Shown piece after piece: positions 1-36,000 of a stretch of 36,000 nt of DNA. Both the position numbers and the translations under genes were made by a program. The notes under the pieces were generated by a model. That model made no database searches and was not told where the DNA came from. It worked only from the letters and a program-made list of their open reading frames with translations. The number at the start of each line of letters is the position of its first letter. Positions within the stretch are counted from its first letter, which is position 1. The stretch is taken from IMG/VR virus record IMGVR_UViG_2534681759_000010, positions 1 to 36,000 of that record, one strand, 5' to 3'. Source of the DNA: a virus. Its lineage: Duplodnaviria; Heunggongvirae; Uroviricota; Caudoviricetes.

Positions 1-351
1 ATGCGAGAGACAGTCGAAATTATGCGTTATCCCGTCACTCTTACACCCGCGCCGGAAGGCGGTTATATGGTTTCTTTTGTGGATATCCCTGAAGCGTTGA
101 CGCAGGGCGAAACTGTCGCTGAAGCGATGGAAGCGGCAAAAGATGCTTTACTGACCGCATTTGATTTTTATTTTGAAGATAACGAGCTAATCCCGTTACC
201 TTCGCCATTAAATAGTCATGATCACTTTATTGAAGTACCTTTGAGCGTCGCCTCTAAGGTATTGCTGTTAAATGCTTTTTTACAGTCAGAAATCACTCAG
301 CAAGAGTTAGCCAGGCGAATTGGCAAACCTAAATGTTGTAAACCCCAATAA
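1..351 (+). CDS. hicB: HicB-family antitoxin, C-terminally truncated: HicA-neutralising N-terminal fold retained, DNA-binding tail replaced by CCKPQ-stop
   Basis: Translation MRYPVTLTPAPEGGYMVSFVDIPEALTQGETVAEAMEAAKDALLTAFDFYFEDNELIP...QQELARRIGKPK matches my recollection of enterobacterial HicB over about 105 residues, then diverges at about nt 336. Not verified by search. Confidence 0.6.
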   Translation: MRETVEIMRYPVTLTPAPEGGYMVSFVDIPEALTQGETVAEAMEAAKDALLTAFDFYFEDNELIPLPSPLNSHDHFIEVPLSVASKVLLLNAFLQSEITQQELARRIGKPKCCKPQ

Positions 352-364
352 CTAAAATTTTTGC

Positions 365-3300: not shown

Positions 3301-3483
3301 TTACCAAACGGTAGCTTCAATCTTCACTTTAATGTCATATCGTTTTAGCAGTTTATGAAAGGTTGATTTATCGATGCCCTCATTTTTAAACCACTCTTCA
3401 ATTCTCACACCCGGCGTTAACTCAAAGTAGCGTTTAGCCATTTCTAAGATGATTTCGCGAGTGAACTTAACAGGTCGTGCCAT
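3301..3483 (-). CDS. Small HTH-type DNA-binding protein, 60 aa; regulator or excisionase/RDF-like candidate
   Basis: Compact basic ORF; co-oriented with 2245..3186 and downstream of the leftward promoter at about 3905-3933. Confidence 0.45.
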   Translation of the reverse strand: MARPVKFTREIILEMAKRYFELTPGVRIEEWFKNEGIDKSTFHKLLKRYDIKVKIEATVW

Positions 3484-3904
3484 CTCGAATCCTCCTACAA
3501 TGTGGATTAATGATTTCTTAAAAAAGAGCGTTAACCGCTCACTATTATTTATATGGGGATTGTATTTTATTTTTCAACCCCTCACATTTATCTCTTATAT
3601 ATGTATTTACAACAGAGATATGTTAAAATGTTATTCAGATGTTATCAGACGTGTTAAATGTGTTAAACCACAGCACGAATTGCTAAAGCGAAGAACACGA
3701 TTTAACCAAATTGATGTATATTCAATCAATTTAGAAAAAGGCATAGCACTTTTTGCTAAAGCGGTGAGCATTAATTGAGCTATGAATTGTAAAGATTTGT
3801 TACAAGATTTTCTCTCAGATCCAAATCTTCACAGGCATATAACAATTTAACACGGTGATAACAAACGGAAGGAAAATCGGTAAATTTTCACTTTCAATAC
3901 AAAT

Positions 3905-3933
3905 ATTATACCACATTTTTCTCCAATTGTCAA
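3905..3933 (-). promoter_or_regulatory. Leftward sigma70 promoter: TTGACA, 17-nt spacer, TATAAT on the minus strand
   Basis: + strand ATTATA near 3905-3910 and TTGTCAA near 3927-3933 are the reverse complements of TATAAT and TTGACAA with a 17-nt spacer. Confidence 0.45.
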
Positions 3934-4000
3934 GTGTAGCACCGATCCTACACAGTGTCAACAAAGGATTTTCAAACCTACACTAGCCCTACACTATGAA

Positions 4001-4195
4001 AATTGCCCCTGAATTTTTGCCCCTGAACCAAAATCCCCTAGATTCCACATCCAATTTTTGCCCCTGAAACCCACTATTTTTGCCCCTGAAATTCTGGGAA
4101 ACAGTGATTTTGCCCCTCATTTTTGCCCCTGAAATGCCAATAATTGCCCCTGAAAATCTAATTTTTGCCCCTGAAATTTGCCCCCCCGAAAAGGA
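4001..4195. repeat. Array of about 8-9 direct copies of (T)TTTGCCCCTGAA(A) with irregular spacing
   Basis: Copies read at approximately 4001, 4013, 4054, 4076, 4107 (degenerate), 4121, 4142, 4160 and 4176 (degenerate). The same core forms the palindromic stem of the terminator at about 6494-6522. Confidence 0.65.
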
Positions 4196-4352
4196 TTGGT
4201 GAGAAAAACTCTTTATAAAACATTAACTTAGTGAGGGGCAAAAGCGGGGGATCGGGCGTGCATAGATATTATATAACACATTCGCTACGCTCATGTGTAA
4301 AACCAAAAACAACAAATAACCAAAAAGATATTAGGAGGGCGTAGCCCGACTG

Positions 4353-4650
4353 CGCGAAGCGCCAACCAATTACTTCTAGTAACAACTAATTTAAACTAGA
4401 TGATCTTAGAAGGAATTAACTAGTTTGCTCGCTCGCTTCGCTCACTCCCAAACGTCTGCGACGCCACTGCGTGGCATCGAGAATCACTTTTGAAAGGATT
4501 TTCTTAGAAAGGGATTTAATACCAGATGATAACTGATTCTAGTAAACGAACGAAGTGAGTAACAATCACTTTCTAGAAAGGTATTGGTTATCCCTTCGGG
4601 ATTGCAACCTTCGGTTGCCAAATTGCTTCCTGATTATTATTATTTCTCCA
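4353..4650 (+). ncRNA. Candidate structured non-coding RNA or leader: two tandem UUCG-tetraloop hairpins, then a U-rich tract
   Basis: No ORF; repeated CTAGAAAGG-ATT motifs; ATCCC-TTCG-GGGAT and GCAAC-CTTCG-GTTGC hairpins near 4590-4620 followed by a T-rich run; bracketed by an 18/20 direct repeat. Strand and ends uncertain. Confidence 0.25.
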
Positions 4651-4824
4651 AAAGAAAGATTCTTATATTCTAAAGATACTTCTTCGTTTTGATGATGGTT
4701 TAATCAAATTATGAAGGAGGGCTTTGCCCGACTGAATACAATCACCTTTCATAATAACAAGAATTTTCTCTTTATAAATAATAGTGAACTTACTTGATTC
4801 ACTTTCTTTTAGAGGATTTCCACT

Positions 4825-6572: not shown

Positions 6573-6803
6573 TCAAATTCCTGTTGCTTCTACCATTTCA
6601 CCATCAACCTGAACAAAGAATTTCAAATCAACTTTATGGAGTGATTTGTAGAATTGAGCAATTGAAATACCATGTTCACTCAATACTTGTTCTTTTTCGG
6701 CTTTACCTTTCGGTGCTTGATAGTACGCTTTTACAATCGCTGCCAGTTGTTCACGATCAAAACGGCAAGGACGACCGCGAGTAGCTTTAGTAGTCATAGT
6801 CAT
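6573..6803 (-). CDS. Stand-alone Hin/resolvase-type HTH DNA-binding protein, 76 aa
   Basis: TRGRPCRFDREQLAAIVKAYYQ...HGISIAQFYKSL follows the GRP-x-HTH pattern of Hin-family C-terminal domains; no catalytic domain. Confidence 0.5.
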   Translation of the reverse strand: MTMTTKATRGRPCRFDREQLAAIVKAYYQAPKGKAEKEQVLSEHGISIAQFYKSLHKVDLKFFVQVDGEMVEATGI

Positions 6804-6831: not shown

Positions 6832-7437
6832 TTATTTAGAGGACTTACATTTTATCGGAAAAAGTTCTCCATCGTCAATACTCATAAAGAACTCTGCCTT
6901 AATCCCGTACTTCTTCAACCGTGAATAGTATGTCCCCCGACTTATATCAACCTTGCGAAGCACTTCAAAGAACCCTTTAGGATCGTTGTAATAGTGGCTA
7001 TAACGCACGTTAGCGAGTTCAACGAATAGTTCCCTTGTATCACCATAGCCTTTCTTGAAAGCCTCGTTACGATAGCGTGTAATGGCATGATTCAATCTCT
7101 TCTGTTTCAACACTTCCCTGATCGGTGTCCACTGCAACCGATAGATAGGACCGTCATCAATGCGATAATAACGCTTGATATCAAAATCAAACCAATCTCG
7201 GACTCTCCGAAACTCTGTATGTGATGTGCGATGCTTCTTAAAGAAGTTATGGATATCTGTATACCCATGATCGCGATACAACTCGATTAAAATTTGCTTC
7301 GCTTCCTCACGACTAAAGCCGGATGTTGTGTAATCAGTCTTCTTGTGATGGTGCTTAACTGGCAAACGATATTCATGATCGGTACAACAAGACAAGGCTA
7401 ATTCTACTTCATCTCTTTGTTGCTGATTAATTAGCAT
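6832..7437 (-). CDS. Hypothetical basic protein, 201 aa, with C-terminal HTH ([15 protein letters not shown])
   Basis: Intact ORF co-oriented with 6573..6803; HTH-like C-terminus; N-terminal domain unassigned. Confidence 0.5.
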
Positions 7438-7524: not shown

Positions 7525-9429
7525 ATGAAACTAATTTCTAATAAGGCCAAATTAAAAAAGATTCTCAGAAATGCAGCCAAATATATTACGCCACCGCCTA
7601 AACTCCTTCCTTCTGAATGGTGCGAAGCGAATATGGTGCTGGTAGATGGTCCTCAAGCGGGGGATAAAGTTAAATTGCTGTCATTCCAGAAAGGCATGAT
7701 TGATGCTCCTTTCCTTGAGAATAAGAAAAAGTATGTACTGATGACCAGTGCGCAGATCGGAAAAACTACCATCCTAAACGGTATCCTGTTTAACCAGATG
7801 GCTAACGATCCATGCAATATGATTATCGGACAATCAACCGCTAAAGAAATGTCTCAATATCTCGCGGGTAAGATCCGACCGTCTATCGAAGCATGTGATG
7901 CATTGAAAGACGTGGTTACAGACAAGAATGATCGTAATGCGGTTAACAACAATAACCAACTCCAGTTAAAAACGAATCACTTCCTGTACATGGTATCGCT
8001 TACCAGTCCATCAACCCTACGCGGTAAGACCGCAAAGGTTGGATTGCTTGACGAAATCGATGCTGCCACAGCCTCAGAAGAAGGTGATCCGGTGGCACTG
8101 GCTGCTAACCGTTTAACTACCTTTGGCGATGAAGGTCGATTAGTCGTATCCAGTACCCCGACCAGTAAGCTGGGAAGCATTAACCAGCAATGGTTATCAA
8201 ACGATATGCGTATGTTTTTTGTTCCGTGTCCTCATTGCGGGGAACACCAGGTGATCGAGTGGGAAAACGTTCAATTTGAATGGCGTAACATTGATGGTAA
8301 GAACTTACCCGATCCTGATACCGCTCGTTATATTTGCCCCCACTGTAAGAACGCATGGACCGAAGGGGAACGAATCAGGGCAGTAGCACAAGGCGAGTGG
8401 AGAGCAACCCGTGAAAGTGAGGTAGCAGGATTCTGGATTAGCCGTCTGTATTCACCTTTCAGCACGATTCGCGCTTGTGTGGTTGATTTTAGTCATGCGT
8501 GGCAATCCTTTGATTTACAATCATTTTATAACACCGTGTTAGGCAAGGTATACGACGATCAGGACACGGCAGTAGAAGCAAATGAACTGGAACAACTCAA
8601 AACAGATGTTTCTATCGAGAATATCCCTGATGACGTGATTTTCTTGTGTGCGGGTACTGACCAGCAATTAGATCGCGCAGAAACTACGATCATGGGCGTG
8701 GCAAAGGATAAAATTTATATTCTGGATCACCGCAGCTTTTACGATCATAACTGTGAACGATATGAATCCCCTGTATGGGATAGATTAATCAACTTCCATA
8801 AAACCAAATTTACTACTGTATCGGGTGATCGTGTTCCTATGCTCGCCAGCTTCCTTGATACATCGAACGGTCGATTCACTCAAGCTGGATACCGTATTTG
8901 CGGCAAGTGGAAGAACTTACACGCTATCAAAGGTAGTTCTGCTGGTAACGCTCCGATCATTCCGGTTAAACCTACCCGCACAGGTGGTCATGAATTGCTT
9001 ATGTTGGGTGTTAACGTGGGTAAAACTGCATTTCGTGAAATGTTGGCTAGGAACCTGAAAGATAATCCTCATATTGGCTTAGAAATATCAGACACCGTTC
9101 CTGATGATTATCTCGATCAGCTTTTAAGTGAATCTGTCAAGCGTACTACTACTGGCGTGAGATGGGTAAAGAACCCAGGCGTTAGGAACGAGGCGCTCGA
9201 CTGCGCCGTGTATGCTACAGCGGCTTCTCGCTACGTCCTTTCAAAAATGTCATGGGATAAACTCATTGCAATGAAAGACAGCTTAAACCGTGTTGTCGAA
9301 GAACCCGTAGAAGCTCCTAAATCGCAATCTGACGAGCAAATCGAAGAAAATAAGCCAATCACACGACCACAACGTAAAAACATCGCCAGACGTCCAAATA
9401 GAGGCCGTAGCTGGGTAACATCGTTCTAA
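7525..9429 (+). CDS. Terminase large subunit, lambda GpA family
   Basis: PCPHCGEHQ vs lambda ACPHCGEEQ; YSPFST vs YSPFTT; [12 protein letters not shown] vs AGIDSQLDRYEM; [15 protein letters not shown] vs RRNEALDCFVYALAA. Confidence 0.85.
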
Positions 9430-11564: not shown

Positions 11565-13577
11565 ATGCTTAAATTTCGCCGCGATCTTAACGGTTACGGT
11601 GGAGTTATTAACGAAGGGCATAACGATCAATACGAATTTGAAATTGCTTTCTCAAGTACACTGCCTTATCAGCGCCAATTTTGGGATGAGCAAAATCAAG
11701 AAATGGTGGTATTAGATGAAATTCTGGTACATACACCGGAAGCGGTTGATCTGTCTCGTCTGAATAATAACGCTCCGTTGCTGTTCAATCATAATTTCGA
11801 TAATCATATTGGTGTCGTTTGTAACGCTCGAATCGATGCGGATAACGTAGGTCGTGCTCTGGTTAAATTCTCTAAGCATGGCACTTTGGCTAATGATATT
11901 CGTAATAAAGTTATTGAAGGTACGATGGAAAAAATTTCTGTCGGCTATGACATTAAAGAATATCACATCGATTACGCTAAATCGCAACTCATTGTTTCTA
12001 AATGGATTCCGCACGAAATTTCATTTGTGACGGTCCCGGCGGACGATTCGGTCGGTTTAAATCGCTCTCTAAATACTATCACAGTTAATTTGGGGGCTAA
12101 ACGCGATATGACTAAAGAACAAATCGAAGAAATCAAAGAAGAACAAGAATCCGCTCAGGTTGAAGAAACTCCGGTAGAAGAAAATAAAGAACCGGAAGTT
12201 GAAGAAACTCAAGAGCGCCAAGTTGAAGAGAATGAAGAAAATGAAAATCTCGAAGACGGAAAAGACGCTGAACATCCTGAAAGTGTTGATGATGATAGTT
12301 CAACTGTTCGGGAAACAGAAGAAGTAAAAGAAGAACGTGAAGCCGCTCCGGTTGAAGAAGAAAAAACCGAGGAAGTGGCTGAACGTTCCGAAGAAGACGA
12401 ATTAGAAATCCGAGCAATCGCTCGTGAGTTAAATATTAACGAAGACGATGAAGAATTTAAACGCGCATTGGCAAATAAAGAAATCACGCCGGAAGCATTC
12501 CGCACTAAGGCACTAAATAAAATCGCTACTGCTCAACGTAACAACGAACAAATTAATAAGGAACAAATCATGGAAAAAACTTTCGATCTTAATAACGTAA
12601 TCCGCTCCCTGGTAGATGGCGACGTGCTCGGCGCTAACGAAGCTGAATATTCCGCTATGGCTGCTACTGCAACTATGCAGCGTGGTCGTGCTGCTCGTGG
12701 TGGCTCTGTATTCGTTCCGGCTGCTGCTATGCGTGCTGCTTCCGAAGGTAACACCAAAGCTACTCTGACTGCTGTTACTGATGAAAAACTGCTGACTGAA
12801 TCCTACATCGAAATGCTGCTTCCACAGTCTGTTCTGGGTCGTCTGGGTGTGACTGTTCTGTCTGGTCTGAATAGCCCGATTGCAGTACCAAAAATGACTG
12901 CTTCCAGCGTCGAAGCCTTTGGTTTTGTTGATGAAAATGGAAGTGCCCCCGAGTCGAAGGCTACCTTTGCAAACGTGAAAATGTCTCCTAAGACGTTTGC
13001 TGGTGGGAACCCGATCAGCAGAGCTAGCATTAAGCAAGTTCCCGGCATCGCTACCCTGATCACTGATCACATTAACAAAGCTGTTCGGATCAAACTGGAA
13101 CAACTGATTCTGTCTGACAAAGATAATACTCGTGGTCCGGCTGGTCTGGTTAAGCAACTGGTAGACGGTGGTCGCGTTACTAAGAAAGCCGCTTTTAGCT
13201 ACAAAGACTTCCTGAAAGAAATTGCAGCACTGACCGACGCTGGCGTTCCGGCACAGTCCATCAAGTTTGCAATGAGCGGTGCAACTTCTGCTGAACTGGA
13301 ATCTACCCTGAAAGATAACGGCGTTTCCGGTTATATCATCGAAAACGGCAAACTGGCTGGTTACGATGTAGTTACTTCTGGCGTTATTCCGGCAGACCAC
13401 ATCGTTCTGGGTGACTTCTCCGGTATCATGATCGGTGAATGGGGTGGTCTGGAACTGGATATGGACGACACCACTTACCGCGCACAGTCTGCTATCGTTC
13501 CGCGTATCTGGGTAGACCTGGACTTCACCGTAGTTCAGCCGGAAGCTCTGAAAGTTCTTCACATCTCCGCTGAATGA
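11565..13577 (+). CDS. Fusion polyprotein: HK97-type (S78) prohead protease, acidic scaffold-like linker, HK97-fold major capsid protein
   Basis: N-terminal LLFNHN...HEISFVTVPADDS fits S78 motifs; an E/D-rich stretch of about 150 aa; C-terminal half ends like an HK97-fold capsid protein (GDFSGIMIGEWGGLELD...). Confidence 0.7.
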   Translation: MLKFRRDLNGYGGVINEGHNDQYEFEIAFSSTLPYQRQFWDEQNQEMVVLDEILVHTPEAVDLSRLNNNAPLLFNHNFDNHIGVVCNARIDADNVGRALVKFSKHGTLANDIRNKVIEGTMEKISVGYDIKEYHIDYAKSQLIVSKWIPHEISFVTVPADDSVGLNRSLNTITVNLGAKRDMTKEQIEEIKEEQESAQVEETPVEENKEPEVEETQERQVEENEENENLEDGKDAEHPESVDDDSSTVRETEEVKEEREAAPVEEEKTEEVAERSEEDELEIRAIARELNINEDDEEFKRALANKEITPEAFRTKALNKIATAQRNNEQINKEQIMEKTFDLNNVIRSLVDGDVLGANEAEYSAMAATATMQRGRAARGGSVFVPAAAMRAASEGNTKATLTAVTDEKLLTESYIEMLLPQSVLGRLGVTVLSGLNSPIAVPKMTASSVEAFGFVDENGSAPESKATFANVKMSPKTFAGGNPISRASIKQVPGIATLITDHINKAVRIKLEQLILSDKDNTRGPAGLVKQLVDGGRVTKKAAFSYKDFLKEIAALTDAGVPAQSIKFAMSGATSAELESTLKDNGVSGYIIENGKLAGYDVVTSGVIPADHIVLGDFSGIMIGEWGGLELDMDDTTYRAQSAIVPRIWVDLDFTVVQPEALKVLHISAE

Positions 13578-18952: not shown

Positions 18953-19249
18953 ATGGGATATTGGGTAAGTAGTGAAATTAATACTAAAATCGATGCTTTA
19001 AAATGGCATGTATTTGATATTCCTAACGGTTATGGTACTGCTCGCGCTGGTGTTGCTGTTTTAAAATATAATGCTGGTGGTGGATGGGCTGATGGTGTGA
19101 TTAACGTAGATGGTTTGACCGTTGCTCGTCGTCGTGGTGGAACTAATTGGGGATCTACTATAAATTCGTTTGTTCCTGCTGGCTGCACCGTCACCTGTGG
19201 ACACGGCGGTGATGGTGGTATTGAATATTTTAAATTCATGGAGTTTTAA
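18953..19249 (+). CDS. Gly-rich small protein, paralog 1 of 3 (FDIPNGY motif)
   Basis: 98 aa; shares W...FDIPNGW/Y, Gly-rich centre and an aromatic-basic C-terminus with the next two ORFs. Confidence 0.6.
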   Translation: MGYWVSSEINTKIDALKWHVFDIPNGYGTARAGVAVLKYNAGGGWADGVINVDGLTVARRRGGTNWGSTINSFVPAGCTVTCGHGGDGGIEYFKFMEF

Positions 19250-19251
19250 TT

Positions 19252-19557
19252 ATGGCTGGATGGATAAATCAAAGAATGTCAAACGCTATTAGTATTTGGG
19301 CTAATGGTGGGTATTTTGATATCCCAAACGGTTGGGTCACTGATTCATGCGGAATTGTTTTTGCTCATATGGAAGCCGTTAACGGTGCTGGTGATCTTGA
19401 TTCTGAATTGGCTGTAAATGGATTGATTGAATCAGGTCATCATGCTGGTGATGCTGGGAGTTGGGGCGCTAGTTCTTTAGTTGGCGCTGGTGCTACCGTT
19501 AGCTTTACATTGGGTAAAGGTAGTTTGCATTATTTCAAATTCAGGAGAATGCACTAA
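19252..19557 (+). CDS. Gly-rich small protein, paralog 2 of 3 (FDIPNGW motif)
   Basis: 101 aa; start 2 nt after the upstream stop. Confidence 0.6.
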   Translation: MAGWINQRMSNAISIWANGGYFDIPNGWVTDSCGIVFAHMEAVNGAGDLDSELAVNGLIESGHHAGDAGSWGASSLVGAGATVSFTLGKGSLHYFKFRRMH

Positions 19558-19859
19558 TGGCATTTTGGGTAGATGGCGCTTTGGGGAATAGGGCGGGTAA
19601 AGCAAATCAAGGATGGTTTGATATTCCTAACGGTTGGACAGCCGACGCTTTCGGGACTATTTCATTCTGTGCTCATTCTTCCGGTGGTGGCGGCGGTGAC
19701 TCTGAATTGTTTATTCATGGTTTTTGTGTTTCTGGAAGCCATAAGGGTCATGATTGGGGACAGATTCATTCTTGTATTGCACCGCAAGGGGCGGTAATTA
19801 CCGTTAGCACAAATAGGGGGATCGCTCATCTTCGTTATAGACGTTTGAGCAACCGCTAA
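19557..19859 (+). CDS. Gly-rich small protein, paralog 3 of 3 (FDIPNGW motif)
   Basis: 100 aa; TAATG stop-start overlap with paralog 2. Confidence 0.6.
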   Translation: MAFWVDGALGNRAGKANQGWFDIPNGWTADAFGTISFCAHSSGGGGGDSELFIHGFCVSGSHKGHDWGQIHSCIAPQGAVITVSTNRGIAHLRYRRLSNR

Positions 19860-31130: not shown

Positions 31131-31712
31131 TTAGAATATGCTGGCGACGTTAGCTATATTTCTGACCATTTTTTCATTATAAACAAACGTTTCTGTAGCA
31201 CCTTCTTTAATATCAAAATCACCTTTTACTAGGTTTTTCTTGATAAACAATTCTGCCGCGTATGCGTCTTTTTCGTCTTGAAATTCGAAAGCCTCGATGA
31301 TATCAAATTTCATCTTATTCTGGCATCTTAGCTTATGTTTTCTCTTCAACACATTGTGACTTACTCCAACCTTACCCACATCACCACACCGCATAACATA
31401 TAATACTGGTTGCCCATTTTTATATTTGTTGTCATATTTGCTACGATTACACGGGCACACAGTAGGATTATGTAAGAATTGTTTTGCTGTTATATCTCTG
31501 ATTCTTGCGCAGCTTTCACACTCTAGCACAATACGGCTATTGATTGATTTATACTCACCTTTGAATCCGTGGTAAATCAAGGGTAAACCCTCGTTTTCAA
31601 TACGGGTCACGATCCTTGCTTCCATATCAATTGGATGTGATGGCGCTTTGCCATTTTTGGTGCGGATAAAATTGAACGGGATATCACATGCTTTGCGCAC
31701 ATCATTCATCAT
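31131..31712 (-). CDS. Zinc-finger plus T5orf172 (GIY-YIG superfamily) domain protein; homing-endonuclease-like
   Basis: Cys cluster CESCARIRDITAKQFLHNPTVCPC; LYVMRCGDVGKVGVSHNVLKR ... ETF fits the T5orf172 pattern. Start set at the internal ATG with a GAGG RBS (track start 31724 is a GTG). Confidence 0.55.
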   Translation of the reverse strand: MMNDVRKACDIPFNFIRTKNGKAPSHPIDMEARIVTRIENEGLPLIYHGFKGEYKSINSRIVLECESCARIRDITAKQFLHNPTVCPCNRSKYDNKYKNGQPVLYVMRCGDVGKVGVSHNVLKRKHKLRCQNKMKFDIIEAFEFQDEKDAYAAELFIKKNLVKGDFDIKEGATETFVYNEKMVRNIANVASIF

Positions 31713-31752
31713 AAAAAACCTCACTTAATTTATCTTATAGGCATTACCTTTA

Positions 31753-32205: not shown

Positions 32206-32240
32206 ATAGTAGTGAACTTATTATTTTCGAGGACACTAAT

Positions 32241-33239
32241 ATGAATACTACTTTAGCAAAGGATATCGAATTTACCGCAAAAAGCAAACGTGCGACCCCT
32301 CCGGTCGAATATGAAACCAGAATCATTAAAGTTTGTCAAGCGCATGGATGGTTATACAGTGGTTTTGTGCTTCCTGTAAAGAAACCATTCCAGAACACCA
32401 AAGTTTGCATAGAAGTTAACGGAAAGGTTAAAACGCCATGTATTAGTCATGTTCTAACTGGTCAGTTTACTGGCAAAGATAGAGTATCACCGCCTAAGAA
32501 GAAGTTTAGATTTACCGAAGAAGAACACTTAGAAAACGCTCGCAAGTTCTACAAGCCGATAGGGTGGGATGTGTTAGGTCTGGCTGAACCTTATCAGGGT
32601 GTTGACACTAAACTAATTCTTCGTTGTAAGTGCCACGGAAAGATTCACAAGAAAGGTGATTTACACAATAACCGCAGACAAGGCGGGTTAACATGCCCTT
32701 TGGTTAGGGGTGTACTTAAATCAATTCAGAATGGTAGAAAACAGGTTATCAGAAACAAGTTTGCACAGCGCCCTATGCACTTTTATCTAATTCGTGTTGG
32801 CGAGAAGTTTTTCAAATATGGAATTACCACTCGCAAAGATCCGATGCAACGGGTAAGAGAACACCAGAAGCACACCAGCGAGAAAATCACCTTTGAATGC
32901 TCACATTTGTTTAACATTGGATGGAAAGCTGGTGATTTAGAAATGGGGATTAAAAAGAATATTCAGGGCAAGAAAATCCCACGTAAGGTAATGAATAGCG
33001 GATTCACAGAAACGCTACCGATTAGCAAGCTGAAAGATGTTAAATCATTCATCAATGAATACATCCACACCAACCCATCTAAGCCAATGTATTTTGATGA
33101 TACCAACGCAATCAATCTGAACAACTACATTAGTGATGAAGACATAGAACGAGATTTATCGCAGTGGATGAATGCACCGTTAGCTGATTTAACACCGGAA
33201 AACTTAGAACTCGATTTAAGCCCTTTAGAGGCTCTCTAA
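32241..33239 (+). CDS. Second zinc-finger plus T5orf172 domain protein, divergent paralog of 31131..31712
   Basis: GAGG RBS before the internal ATG (track start 32100 + 141); Cys/His cluster RCKCHGKIHKKGDLH...LTCPL; HFYLIRVGEKFFKYGITTRKDPMQRVREH fits the T5orf172 core. Confidence 0.55.
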   Translation: MNTTLAKDIEFTAKSKRATPPVEYETRIIKVCQAHGWLYSGFVLPVKKPFQNTKVCIEVNGKVKTPCISHVLTGQFTGKDRVSPPKKKFRFTEEEHLENARKFYKPIGWDVLGLAEPYQGVDTKLILRCKCHGKIHKKGDLHNNRRQGGLTCPLVRGVLKSIQNGRKQVIRNKFAQRPMHFYLIRVGEKFFKYGITTRKDPMQRVREHQKHTSEKITFECSHLFNIGWKAGDLEMGIKKNIQGKKIPRKVMNSGFTETLPISKLKDVKSFINEYIHTNPSKPMYFDDTNAINLNNYISDEDIERDLSQWMNAPLADLTPENLELDLSPLEAL

Positions 33240-33253
33240 CGCAATTAAATTCA

Positions 33254-33285
33254 AAAGGGGTACTAATACCCCTTAACTGTTTTAG
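33254..33285. terminator. Bidirectional terminator between convergent genes
   Basis: AAGGGGTA-CTAA-TACCCCTT hairpin with T-rich flanks on both strands. Confidence 0.5.
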
Positions 33286-33310: not shown

Positions 33311-34990
33311 TTAAATTCCAAATTCCTGTAATGGACCTGGTATTTCCTCTTCTGGTTTCCAGTTCTTATCTGTCAGCATGTCTAAACATGGATGCAAAAC
33401 AAGCCCGTTACTTTCCAGAATCTGTCTATCATTGATAGTTTTCAAATCAACGAAGATCCGGCCTTTCCTCGGTCCTCTTGAATTTTCTATTACAACTCTC
33501 TGGGTCTTGCCATCGATGTATTCCAGTACAAACAAGTTTTTGTACTTGTCAATCCTGCTACACCCGATCCGTTTTAGAGCTTGCTTAATCTTAAACCGGA
33601 CCTTAATGCGATCCTCGTTGTAAACATCTTCTATATCAAATTCTGCGAGCTTCTCCCAGCCTTGAGAGTCAACAGAATACATTTCCTCTTCTGCCATCTT
33701 AATTTGATTGTAGAGTGTTTCACGCTCGCTATTGAGGGTAGTAATCTGATCGGCTAGCTCCTTCGTTGCTCCTGTCATAGCAGAAAGGGTAATCAGGTTA
33801 TCAATCTTGCGTGATATTTCATCAATCTGTACTTTCAAAGCCGGAACCGGATTAGCCTTATCCTCAGCAATCCAGATTTTATCAGCCAGCAATTGCAATA
33901 CAGCTTTCTCTAATTGATCACCTCGAAAACTCCAGTTTGTATGCACACATGCAATACGACTAGAGCGCATTGCATCGCATGAATAACGATATTGGTTAGG
34001 ACGTTTGTTAGTTCCTTTCACCTTAACCATAGCGGAACCGCAATGTTCACATTTCAATAGACCAACACCACTAAGCAAGGGAATAGGTTTAACTTCTTCC
34101 TTGTCTCCATAGTTACATGCTCTAACACCAATGCTTTTCTTAAGGTGATAAAACTCAGCGTCATCTAGCACACGAGGATAATAATCCTTTAACTCATACT
34201 TAACGCCATCTACAGAGATTTCCTTGATACCAATCAAAGCGCGGGTATGGAACAACCTTTCAATCATTGCCCGTGACCAGTTTGAATGCCTCTTGTGACT
34301 TGCGGCTGGTGGTGGTGTGTATGTCGCGTTAAGGTGATCCAGTATCTCGGCGGTTGACCGTCCATTCCTGCGTAATTCCACAACTTCCTGAACAATAGGG
34401 AAGAAGACCGGATGAGGAAGCACATAACCAGATGTGGTATCAGTCCACCACATATTCTTTCCAATTTCCTCGATTGCAACAGCCGGATTTTGTGGATTTT
34501 CTTGATGAGCTTTAATCTTAATCAATGCGCTTGAGTTAGTACGATTGCGCTTAGTCTGACTTTCCTCGTTAGCTCTCGCAAACAACATGACACTCAACAG
34601 CAAATCAATAGGATTGGCATTAACCGATTCCTTGCTATAGACCTTACCATCCATGCCAGTTACGATAGTTATTCCCCTACGGATAATCGAGAGAAATAGC
34701 TCTTGTGCTTCAATGATGGATTGGCGAGAGATACGGTCTAAGTTTTCCACAACCAGCCAGCTACCAACCGGAACGGATCGACCAATCTCATCCAGAAAGC
34801 GAGATAGTGCACCTGTTCTACTGTTAGCCCCTTTGAATGCAGATACACCAAAATCCTGATAGGAAGTAACCAGTTCAAGGTCATATTTTGCGGCTATCTC
34901 TGCGGCTGTTCTCTTTTGGCGTTCATAAGAACTACCATCTGCTTGCTTCATGGAAGAGAAGCGAATATACGAATACAGTTTAGTTTTCAT
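33311..34990 (-). CDS. Large serine recombinase (serine integrase or invertase-like)
   Basis: N-terminal resolvase catalytic domain (MKTKLYSYIRFSSMKQADGSSYERQ); long C-terminal extension with Cys cluster (CEHCGS...C...C) and coiled coil, typical of large serine recombinases. Start at the internal ATG (track start is a TTG). Confidence 0.8.
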   Translation of the reverse strand: MKTKLYSYIRFSSMKQADGSSYERQKRTAAEIAAKYDLELVTSYQDFGVSAFKGANSRTGALSRFLDEIGRSVPVGSWLVVENLDRISRQSIIEAQELFLSIIRRGITIVTGMDGKVYSKESVNANPIDLLLSVMLFARANEESQTKRNRTNSSALIKIKAHQENPQNPAVAIEEIGKNMWWTDTTSGYVLPHPVFFPIVQEVVELRRNGRSTAEILDHLNATYTPPPAASHKRHSNWSRAMIERLFHTRALIGIKEISVDGVKYELKDYYPRVLDDAEFYHLKKSIGVRACNYGDKEEVKPIPLLSGVGLLKCEHCGSAMVKVKGTNKRPNQYRYSCDAMRSSRIACVHTNWSFRGDQLEKAVLQLLADKIWIAEDKANPVPALKVQIDEISRKIDNLITLSAMTGATKELADQITTLNSERETLYNQIKMAEEEMYSVDSQGWEKLAEFDIEDVYNEDRIKVRFKIKQALKRIGCSRIDKYKNLFVLEYIDGKTQRVVIENSRGPRKGRIFVDLKTINDRQILESNGLVLHPCLDMLTDKNWKPEEEIPGPLQEFGI

Positions 34991-34999
34991 ACCATTTCC

Positions 35000-35040
35000 A
35001 AACAAAAACGCCCCTACCGCGTATTATAACGATAGGGGCA
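35000..35040 (-). terminator. Hairpin terminator immediately upstream of the recombinase start
   Basis: GCCCCTA...TAGGGGC stem with a 16-nt loop containing TATTATAAC, followed on the minus strand by GTTTTTGTTT. Confidence 0.4.
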
Positions 35041-35055
35041 TTGGTTAGTAAGTCA

Positions 35056-35301
35056 TTAATATTTCTTTCCAGTTAGTTTTGCATCACGTTTATTAATATC
35101 CTCGATATGACTCCATACACACGCAGTAATAAAGTCGTCATCGTCACCAACTCCGGCAACCTGTGCTAATTCAGTACACAGTTGATTTAAAGAAGGTGCA
35201 ACGGCAGCACGCTTGACACTATCACCCTGTACATATTGATCCGCATTAGCAGCACCAACCAAACCCAGAGCAAGAACAACACCAGCGATAATCTTTTTCA
35301 T
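35056..35301 (-). CDS. Small secreted (periplasmic) protein, 81 aa, with Sec signal peptide and no lipobox
   Basis: MKKIIAGVVLALGLVGAANA followed by DQ; mature part about 60 aa with two Cys. Confidence 0.55.
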   Translation of the reverse strand: MKKIIAGVVLALGLVGAANADQYVQGDSVKRAAVAPSLNQLCTELAQVAGVGDDDDFITACVWSHIEDINKRDAKLTGKKY

Positions 35302-35472: not shown

Positions 35473-35585
35473 TGCTCACCCCATACTAACGACAATATAA
35501 GAAAGGCTGATCATAGTTGTGAGACTACCTCCCACGAATGAGATAAAAGCTAACATGTTTGATTCTCCAGTTTAAAAAGCGGTGG

Positions 35586-35612
35586 GAATTACACCCACCA
35601 AATTAGAAATTA
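35586..35612 (-). terminator. Terminator for the minus-strand gene 35614..36000
   Basis: GGTGGG-AATTACA-CCCACC hairpin followed on the minus strand by GCTTTTT. Confidence 0.5.
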
Positions 35613-35613
35613 A

Positions 35614-36000
35614 TTAAGCGCGAACGATGGTCAGAGTATCCAGCAAACCTTTTTCGTATAATTCGAAACACGTTTTATATTGCTCAATCTTCCAACCGTA
35701 GCGGGTGATCTTATTCAGTAGAATAATCGCGCTATTCTCATCTAGGTATTGTCCTTGTTGTCCAATGACATAAGTCTCGCGGGATAGTCTCAGCTTACGG
35801 AAACCTTTAACACCTAATTCCTTAGCCACCGTTTTAATCTCGTTAATCTCACCTTCTGCGGCTACATATTCAGCGTCGATAATCTCAGGTGATGATCTCA
35901 GTGCTACCAGAACTAAGGCCATTGCTTCTTCTTCGGTACGAGCAACACCAGCTTTCTCGAAAGTCATCTCGCCAAATTTACGAATCATGATATTGAACAT
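35614..36000 (-). CDS. Hypothetical protein; N-terminus may lie beyond the window edge
   Basis: ORF runs to the window boundary; no family recognised. Confidence 0.45.
   Translation of the reverse strand: MFNIMIRKFGEMTFEKAGVARTEEEAMALVLVALRSSPEIIDAEYVAAEGEINEIKTVAKELGVKGFRKLRLSRETYVIGQQGQYLDENSAIILLNKITRYGWKIEQYKTCFELYEKGLLDTLTIVRA

Follow-up and report, generated by a model that had tools for sequence, protein, structure and literature searches.

A 559-aa large serine recombinase as the probable integrase of an Escherichia coli prophage inserted in hicB

The DNA analysed here, called the window throughout, is the stretch of 36,000 nucleotides (nt) formed by positions 1 to 36,000 of the IMG/VR virus record IMGVR_UViG_2534681759_000010 (Caudoviricetes). 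It carries a siphovirus-like prophage of Escherichia coli of ~35.7 kb, at whose right end lies a gene for a serine recombinase of 559 amino acids (aa), named only "recombinase family protein" in public sources. With a probability of about 93%, this gene is the conventional large serine integrase, of the large serine recombinase family, of a prophage that sits in the host gene hicB. The enzyme is an uncharacterised but conventional, otherwise routine prophage integrase. The features on which this reading depends are the following.

33311-34990, minus strand: large serine recombinase (integrase), ATG start, 559 aa; from domains, PHROGs, alignment, an AlphaFold2 (AF2) model and fold matches
Protein domains of the recombinase: catalytic ~1-125 (R10, S12); helix E 127-164; recombinase domain ~196-291; zinc ribbon ~310-373; coiled coil 382-437; C-terminal domain 443-559
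1-333, plus strand: 5' part of host hicB, the B arm of attL; ATG at window position 22, truncated open reading frame (ORF) running to 351
299-352, plus strand: attL, with a B half-site, the putative central AA at 325-326 and a P' half-site; from comparison of the attL, attR and attB junctions
328-332 (CCTAA) and 343-352 (CCCCAATAAC), plus strand: motifs of the P' side of attL

Bases 1-333 of the window are the 5' part of hicB, in frame and identical to K-12 up to GGC AAA CCT AAA (GGCAAACCTAAA), and the remainder is prophage DNA of 42% G+C. An earlier note, made from the letters of the window alone, had set the recombinase more than 32 kb from the hicB junction. This holds for attL, where the 5' part of hicB ends at ~333, and fails for attR, which is only ~1 kb away. 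The recombinase occurs at 100% protein identity on public contigs, and two of these (Logan SRR446838 and GCA_000355255.2 AQFA01000036.1) match the final 6,690 nt of the window without a difference. Both run on as TGTTGTACCCCCTCGTGTTATTGTGGGGGCATTATATTAGGCAAACCTAAACAGGAGATTACTCGCC, where 39 nt still belong to the phage; GGCAAACCTAAA comes next and leads into the 3' part of hicB and ydcR. In UTME-9, the closest complete genome (98.6% identical over the right end), a hicB 3' remnant is annotated from 37 nt past the equivalent of the window end. The second attachment site and the hicB remnant that the same note had expected shortly beyond 36000 were therefore both found, with attR ~43 nt past the window end, and its guess that the element is about as long as the window agrees with the measured 35,718 bp from centre to centre. 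Between the recombinase gene and attR lie two small genes, and the distance is ~1 kb in every relative. The Rfam and tRNA scans of the window returned nothing, and the element is not one that targets a tRNA gene. Each of the genomes UTME-9 (NZ_CP157110.1) and BS74R-D (NZ_CP063332.1) has two separate matches to parts of the prophage, which suggests that each is lysogenic for two related elements at separate sites.

The identity of the protein as a serine recombinase, also proposed in that note, was confirmed by the ORF and by three Pfam domains, accepted only above the curated cut-offs: Resolvase (PF00239, residues 6-153, E 7e-15), Recombinase (PF07508, residues 198-286, 32.2 bits against a cut-off of 21.1) and Zn_ribbon_recom (PF13408, residues 310-368, 39.6 bits against 25.3). 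PHROGs assigns it to phrog_95, "integrase" (E 3e-56). In the mechanical ORF list the gene begins at an upstream TTG (35005), giving a version of 564 aa, and the 1680-nt version is the RefSeq call in relatives. The catalytic motif, YSYIRFSSMKQ, is of the Y-x-R-x-S-x-x-x-Q type and aligns with YLYTRVSTSIQ of the PDB entry 3guv. Across 29 aligned homologues, the most distant at 35% identity, R10, S12 and Q16 are invariant, as are the zinc-ribbon cysteines C314, C317, C338 and C348. Besides E. coli, the recombinase is present in Shigella, E. fergusonii, Salmonella and Edwardsiella, and more distantly related proteins occur in Enterobacter, Citrobacter and Klebsiella.

The AF2 model (mean predicted local distance difference test score, pLDDT, 77) has a long helix E at 127-164, followed by the helical recombinase domain at 196-291 and the zinc ribbon, and it predicts a coiled coil made of the helices 382-406 and 410-437 (pLDDT ~80-89), a motif by which synapsis and directionality are controlled in this family. 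The best PDB folds for it are full-length att-bound serine integrases, namely 9dxd (E 6e-16), 9dxf, 9dxh, phiC31 integrase and Listeria 4kis. Since a PDB search with the sequence found the catalytic-domain fragment 3guv alone, the recombinase belongs to a divergent clade, and in the structural alignments its identity to known serine integrases is only ~12-15%. The domain order (catalytic, helix E, recombinase domain, zinc ribbon with an inserted coiled coil) is that of the integrases of phiC31, Bxb1, Listeria A118/LI and TP901-1. As in those systems, attP is ~50 bp long with imperfect dyad symmetry around a non-palindromic dinucleotide, the target is not duplicated, and the gene adjoins an att site. 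Unlike them, the present system is found in a Gram-negative enteric host and carries an extra C-terminal domain of ~115 aa. This alpha/beta domain (residues 443-559; nt 33311-33663), encoded 3' of the coiled coil, is conserved in all three specificity classes described below and was not reported separately by the structural search.

The core common to attL and attR covers 322-333 (GGCAAACCTAAA) in the strain of the window and is AAACCTAAA in UTME-9. The hicB-type attP was reconstructed as GTGTTATTGTGGGGGCATTATATTAGGCAAACCTAAATGTTGTAAACCCCAATAAC, and the matching attB is placed in ~50 bp of K-12 hicB with GGCAAACCTAAAC at the centre. Relatives of the prophage lie in two other genes, ycdX and codB, and their junctions are more restrictive. 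For the ycdX class, the K-12 attB reads cccggaAAtcccaaat, attL reads cccggaAAccctaacg and attR reads ttagggAAtcccaaat; when its attB (cccggaAAtccc) is set against its attP (ttagggAAccct), AA alone is in common, with mismatches on either side. The codB class has a shared core of GGCA. Tyrosine integrases need an overlap of 6-8 bp that is identical in attP and attB. A shared core of only 2 bp at ycdX is therefore incompatible with such an overlap, and the sharing of AA alone fits a 2-bp staggered exchange by a serine recombinase.

The symmetry of the three reconstructed attP sites was scored as the complementarity of two 26-nt arms at every possible central dinucleotide, with the following results.

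hicB-type attP, centre AA: 14 of 26 arm positions complementary
ycdX-type attP, centre AA: 18 of 26 arm positions complementary
codB-type attP, centre CA: 17 of 26 arm positions complementary

In all three (3/3) the top centre of dyad symmetry falls inside the junction core. Over all 35,946 centres of the window the background was 6.6 +/- 2.3 (mean), with scores of at least 14 at 0.26% of the centres and of at least 17 at 0.017%. The symmetric motifs of the hicB-type attP are TTAGG/CCTAA, at 2-6 from the centre, and GTTATTGTGG/CCCCAATAAC, at 17-26, and they match the two-motif layout of the half-sites of serine-integrase attP sites. From this symmetry and from homology with the ycdX-type sites, we infer that the crossover in the window probably took place at AA 325-326, within codon K102 of HicB. 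The att sites are short, with imperfect dyad symmetry, a 2-bp crossover (at hicB placed by inference within 12 bp of identity) and no target-site duplication. An inverted repeat, AGGCGA/TCGCCT, centred on 331/332, was also considered as the centre of attB and was set aside, as it is absent from the ycdX and codB sites and lies off the symmetry centre of attP.

The sister prophages also link the gene to the insertion. The recombinase gene is present in 57 of the 5,426 complete E. coli genomes and the hicB attR junction in 31. All 29 genomes (29/29) with a full-length recombinase gene at least 90.8% identical at the DNA level have it at hicB, and the class of 86.8-88.3% identity is not at hicB. 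Prophages of the same type split ycdX in PigCaeca_2, ES2, Z0117EC0005 and FDAARGOS_1267, and codB in 06-00048 and 39EVA. Within a site class the recombinase proteins share 97-99.8% identity, against 74-87% when classes are compared. Substitutions of the codB type are concentrated in residues ~200-360 (recombinase and zinc-ribbon domains), and the ycdX type differs in the catalytic domain too; in both types, conservation extends over the coiled coil and the bulk of the C-terminal part. FDAARGOS_1267 is a natural chimera located in ycdX: its residues 1-160 are hicB/codB-like (157/160 identical to the hicB type against 130/160 to the ycdX type), and over residues 201-360 it is closer to the ycdX type by a modest margin (137/160, against 126/160 to the hicB type). 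Because the allele classes sort by site and because of this chimera, site choice is taken to track the DNA-binding domains, as expected for large serine recombinases. It is these junction and co-variation analyses, and not homology alone, that settle the integrase role. The ycdX and codB targets are always in the same orientation relative to the prophage, and the ycdX class has one extra gene, of ~90 aa, between the gene for a 128-aa protein next to attR and attR itself.

The same evidence bears on a different assignment of the gene, as an accessory invertase, resolvase or rearrangement enzyme of the YbcK or Pin kind, with some other, unrecognised enzyme responsible for integration into hicB. 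Small serine invertases and resolvases (Hin, Gin, Pin, Tn3, gamma-delta) measure ~180-200 aa, end in a helix-turn-helix (HTH) and act on inverted hix/gix or res sites. The N-terminal domain of the recombinase does have a weak match to phrog_125, "DNA invertase", YbcK-type proteins, which are encoded mid-genome in lambdoid phages, are among its closest matches in deposited phages, and several ORFs of the window are without family assignment. Against this assignment, the protein has the full large-serine-recombinase architecture, with recombinase and zinc-ribbon domains in 559 aa, which makes it three times as large as Hin or Gin. Around the gene, no segment is bordered by hix/gix-like inverted repeats; the inverted repeats within 7 kb are short, imperfect and at chance level. 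The gene keeps its place ~1 kb from attR in every relative, its alleles sort perfectly by insertion site, and two hallmarks of a serine integrase are present, namely the shared core of 2 bp at ycdX and the symmetry of attP. The scans for recombinase, replication and repressor genes covered 39 ORFs of the window, by Pfam and/or PHROGs, and detected no second serine recombinase, tyrosine integrase or transposase above threshold. The gene is thus the sole recombinase of the window, as the earlier note had stated; none of the scanned ORFs has the Phage_integrase domain that marks tyrosine integrases. Its suggestion of an invertase or resolvase did not hold up against the architecture, the missing hix/gix-like repeats and the co-variation of allele and site, and we regard this assignment as highly improbable.

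Several observations weigh against the reading of the gene as the integrase of the prophage in hicB. Its nearest homologues in deposited phages are only 28-30% identical over ~85% of the length; these include the mid-genome YbcK-type proteins, so homology alone cannot prove an integrase role. They comprise proteins of the Burkholderia phages Bcep176, JC1 and Bcep22 and recombinases of E. coli prophages of the YbcK type, several of them annotated as integrase or serine recombinase, and besides the low identity they differ in that the lambdoid YbcK-type genes are interior in the record. The identity between attP and attB at hicB, 9-12 bp, is unusually long beside the phiC31, Bxb1, A118 and TP901-1 systems, and for this reason the junctions alone cannot place the crossover; the attB sites have only weak dyad symmetry around the proposed centre. 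The hicB-type attP junction had 0 matches in the viral, metagenome and genome collections, the ycdX-type junction had 0 in the viral and metagenome collections, and the relatives in IMG/VR, checked for circular permutation, were all trimmed prophages and not circles, either stopping close to the 128-aa gene or extending into hicB. Finally, the prophage yielded no gene recognisable as a directionality factor, repressor or replication protein, and could therefore be defective.

Taken further, these points would make the enzyme a real integrase in a defective, immobile remnant, a non-functional fossil of past integration. In line with this, no replication protein, CI-type repressor or holin was recognised among the scanned ORFs, the excised attP form is absent from every collection searched, and some relatives (PigCaeca_2, HCP5S3_I4, C325) carry IS1 insertions or deletions. 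Yet the recombinase ORF is intact, with all catalytic and zinc-binding residues conserved, and the set of head, tail and lysis genes is complete and intact. The same type of prophage occupies three chromosomal sites with precise junctions and occurs in only ~1% of E. coli genomes, a rarity that favours recent mobility over an old relic. We consider a fossil unlikely.

By analogy with other large serine recombinases, dimers of the integrase would bind the ~54-bp attP and the site inside host hicB. Synapsis would be followed by double-strand breaks with a 2-nt stagger at the central AA, presumably through Ser12 as the catalytic residue, and the subunits would rotate by 180 degrees before the ends are religated. 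The expected products are attL (299-352, AA 325-326) and attR (AA 36043-36044, past the window end), with no duplication of the target. Site choice would be set by the recombinase and zinc-ribbon domains; it is chiefly in these that the sister alleles, which use ycdX or codB, diverge. Excision would probably require a separate directionality factor.

As to the expression of the integrase, the sequence around the gene contains three hairpins.

35007-35042, minus strand: intrinsic-terminator-like hairpin of 14 pairs (7 G-C) with a loop of 8 nt and the tail TTTGTTTGGA
33255-33274, both strands: two-way terminator-like hairpin between the convergent endonuclease-like gene (end 33239) and recombinase gene (end 33311)
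35580-35600, minus strand: terminator-like hairpin 3' of the 128-aa gene

The first of these is the hairpin that the earlier note had seen just upstream of the start, and its likeness to a terminator was corroborated: on the recombinase strand, a stem-loop from 35042 to 35007 is followed by TTTGTTTGG, and its RNA folds at -23.7 kcal/mol (z = -3.4 against shuffles). It directly follows the stop codon of the gene for an 81-aa protein (35056-35301), and 17 nt separate its end from the recombinase ATG. Relatives of the hicB, ycdX and codB classes all keep it, also where the upstream flank differs, and it travels with the integrase gene, because the block of conservation starts at the hairpin even in 06-00048, whose upstream gene is different. 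The hairpin is credible as an intrinsic terminator for the two attR-proximal genes, whose transcripts would stop 17 nt short of the integrase start codon, and it would be reasonable to suppose that it insulates the recombinase from read-through. No sigma-70-type promoter was found between the hairpin and the ATG, and expression of the integrase would therefore need read-through, a promoter overlapping the hairpin, or antitermination. With a putative terminator directly upstream, expression is probably low or controlled. The TATAAT in the loop was considered as part of an integrase promoter and is not claimed as such: the -10 is perfect, but the -35 matches at only 3/6 positions by eye. In the two-way hairpin at 33255-33274, the stem is conserved among relatives and the loop is variable.

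The insertion alters the host gene. K-12 HicB is a protein of 138 aa with the domains HicB_lk_antitox (3-67) and HTH_3 (88-134). The product encoded at attL consists of HicB 1-104 followed by CCKPQ; it keeps HicB_lk_antitox and loses the HTH_3 match, the crossover at K102 removing the part of HTH_3 beyond residue 104. A hicB truncated by this element is found in ~0.6% of complete E. coli genomes (31/5,426), which may matter for studies of hicAB regulation that use natural isolates. The arrangement resembles that of the Bacillus subtilis prophage SPbeta, in which a serine-integrase prophage (SprA) splits the host coding sequence spsM (PMC5499854). Here, too, a host gene is split and precise excision would restore it. 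Unlike spsM, the target is an antitoxin gene, a SprB-like directionality factor was not identified, and excision under a developmental or physiological programme is not indicated.

Two further proposals are possible, though we consider them doubtful: that the hicB, ycdX and codB alleles form a natural, E. coli-native integrase series with three intragenic targets, or that the prophage acts as a reversible switch of hicAB autoregulation ("active lysogeny"). If the former were true, the few substitutions involved (74-87% identity, together with the chimera) would make the residues for att specificity readable in the recombinase and zinc-ribbon domains, and the allele set would be usable as orthogonal integration tools in enterobacteria. 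If the latter were true, an insertion at K102, which keeps the toxin-binding domain and cuts the HTH, would not be a neutral one.

A literature search returned no paper describing hicB, ycdX or codB as the attB of a serine-integrase prophage, and the N-terminal string of the recombinase was absent from the literature searched. The portion of the supplements of Durrant et al. (2022) that was consulted contains neither this string nor the searched attP core string nor the word "hicB". Only one paper names hicB together with attB, and its subject is an unrelated HicAB borne by a phage. Right-end DNA of the prophage had no match among deposited phages, whose best large-terminase match is 43.5% identical. 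For an E. coli prophage lineage that is unstudied and has no close relative among deposited phages, the analysis settles the boundaries and the mechanism of integration, and it shows that the lineage uses a serine integrase. Its most useful by-product is the allele series, with attP and attB sequences ready for three related specificities.

The other genes and features of the prophage that are referred to here are listed below.

1005-1580: small terminase (Pfam/PHROGs)
31131-31724, minus strand, and 32238-33239, plus strand: endonuclease-like genes, both phrog_681; a homologue of one is annotated as a GIY-YIG nuclease in a relative
35056-35301, minus strand: 81-aa ORF between the integrase and attR, with a hydrophobic, signal-peptide-like N-terminus; hypothetical in relatives
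35614-36000, minus strand: 128-aa attR-proximal gene, phrog_14908; its ATG is formed by the last three bases of the window, and the P arm of attR begins directly beyond

The 81-aa ORF had no Pfam or PHROGs match. The 128-aa protein is no more than a candidate accessory or directionality factor. The endonuclease-like pair sits between the lysis genes and the integrase, at a position whose content differs between relatives; in ES2 it is taken by a gene of the DEAD/DEAH helicase family. Other genes recognised by Pfam/PHROGs encode a Rha-type regulator, large terminase, portal, tail tube, tape measure, tail tip, tail fibres and an M15 endolysin.

The small terminase and the large terminase (7525-9429) are ~6 kb apart, an unusual layout with regulatory and unknown genes and an iteron-like region between them. 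The earlier note had found no recognisable replication module. That stands at the sensitivity of Pfam/PHROGs, subject to the iteron-like array at 4001-4176, which may mark an origin. In the array, TTTTGCCCCTGAA occurs seven times in direct orientation, in units of 21 nt at spacings of 21-22 or 41-43 nt, with an inverted copy at 4232-4250. The array lies within an ORF-poor stretch of ~1.4 kb (~3480-4820) that is low in G+C (36-39%) and without credible genes; from its layout it may be an origin, a partition site or a cluster of operators. Three small proteins without family assignment (3301-3483, 6573-6803 and 6832-7437, all on the minus strand) have N-terminal HTH-like motifs of the GRP-x-[KR]-F type, and one of them, a 60-aa ORF, has an HTH_Tnp_1 match below threshold. 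Proteins of this group are possible candidates for regulators or excision cofactors. The prohead protease and the major capsid protein are fused into one protein of 670 aa (11565-13577; phrog_617 and phrog_4523) with a long acidic linker. Three paralogous ORFs of ~100 aa (18953-19859), without family matches, follow in tandem immediately on the tail-fibre gene (1176 aa) and share the motif W...FDIPNGW.

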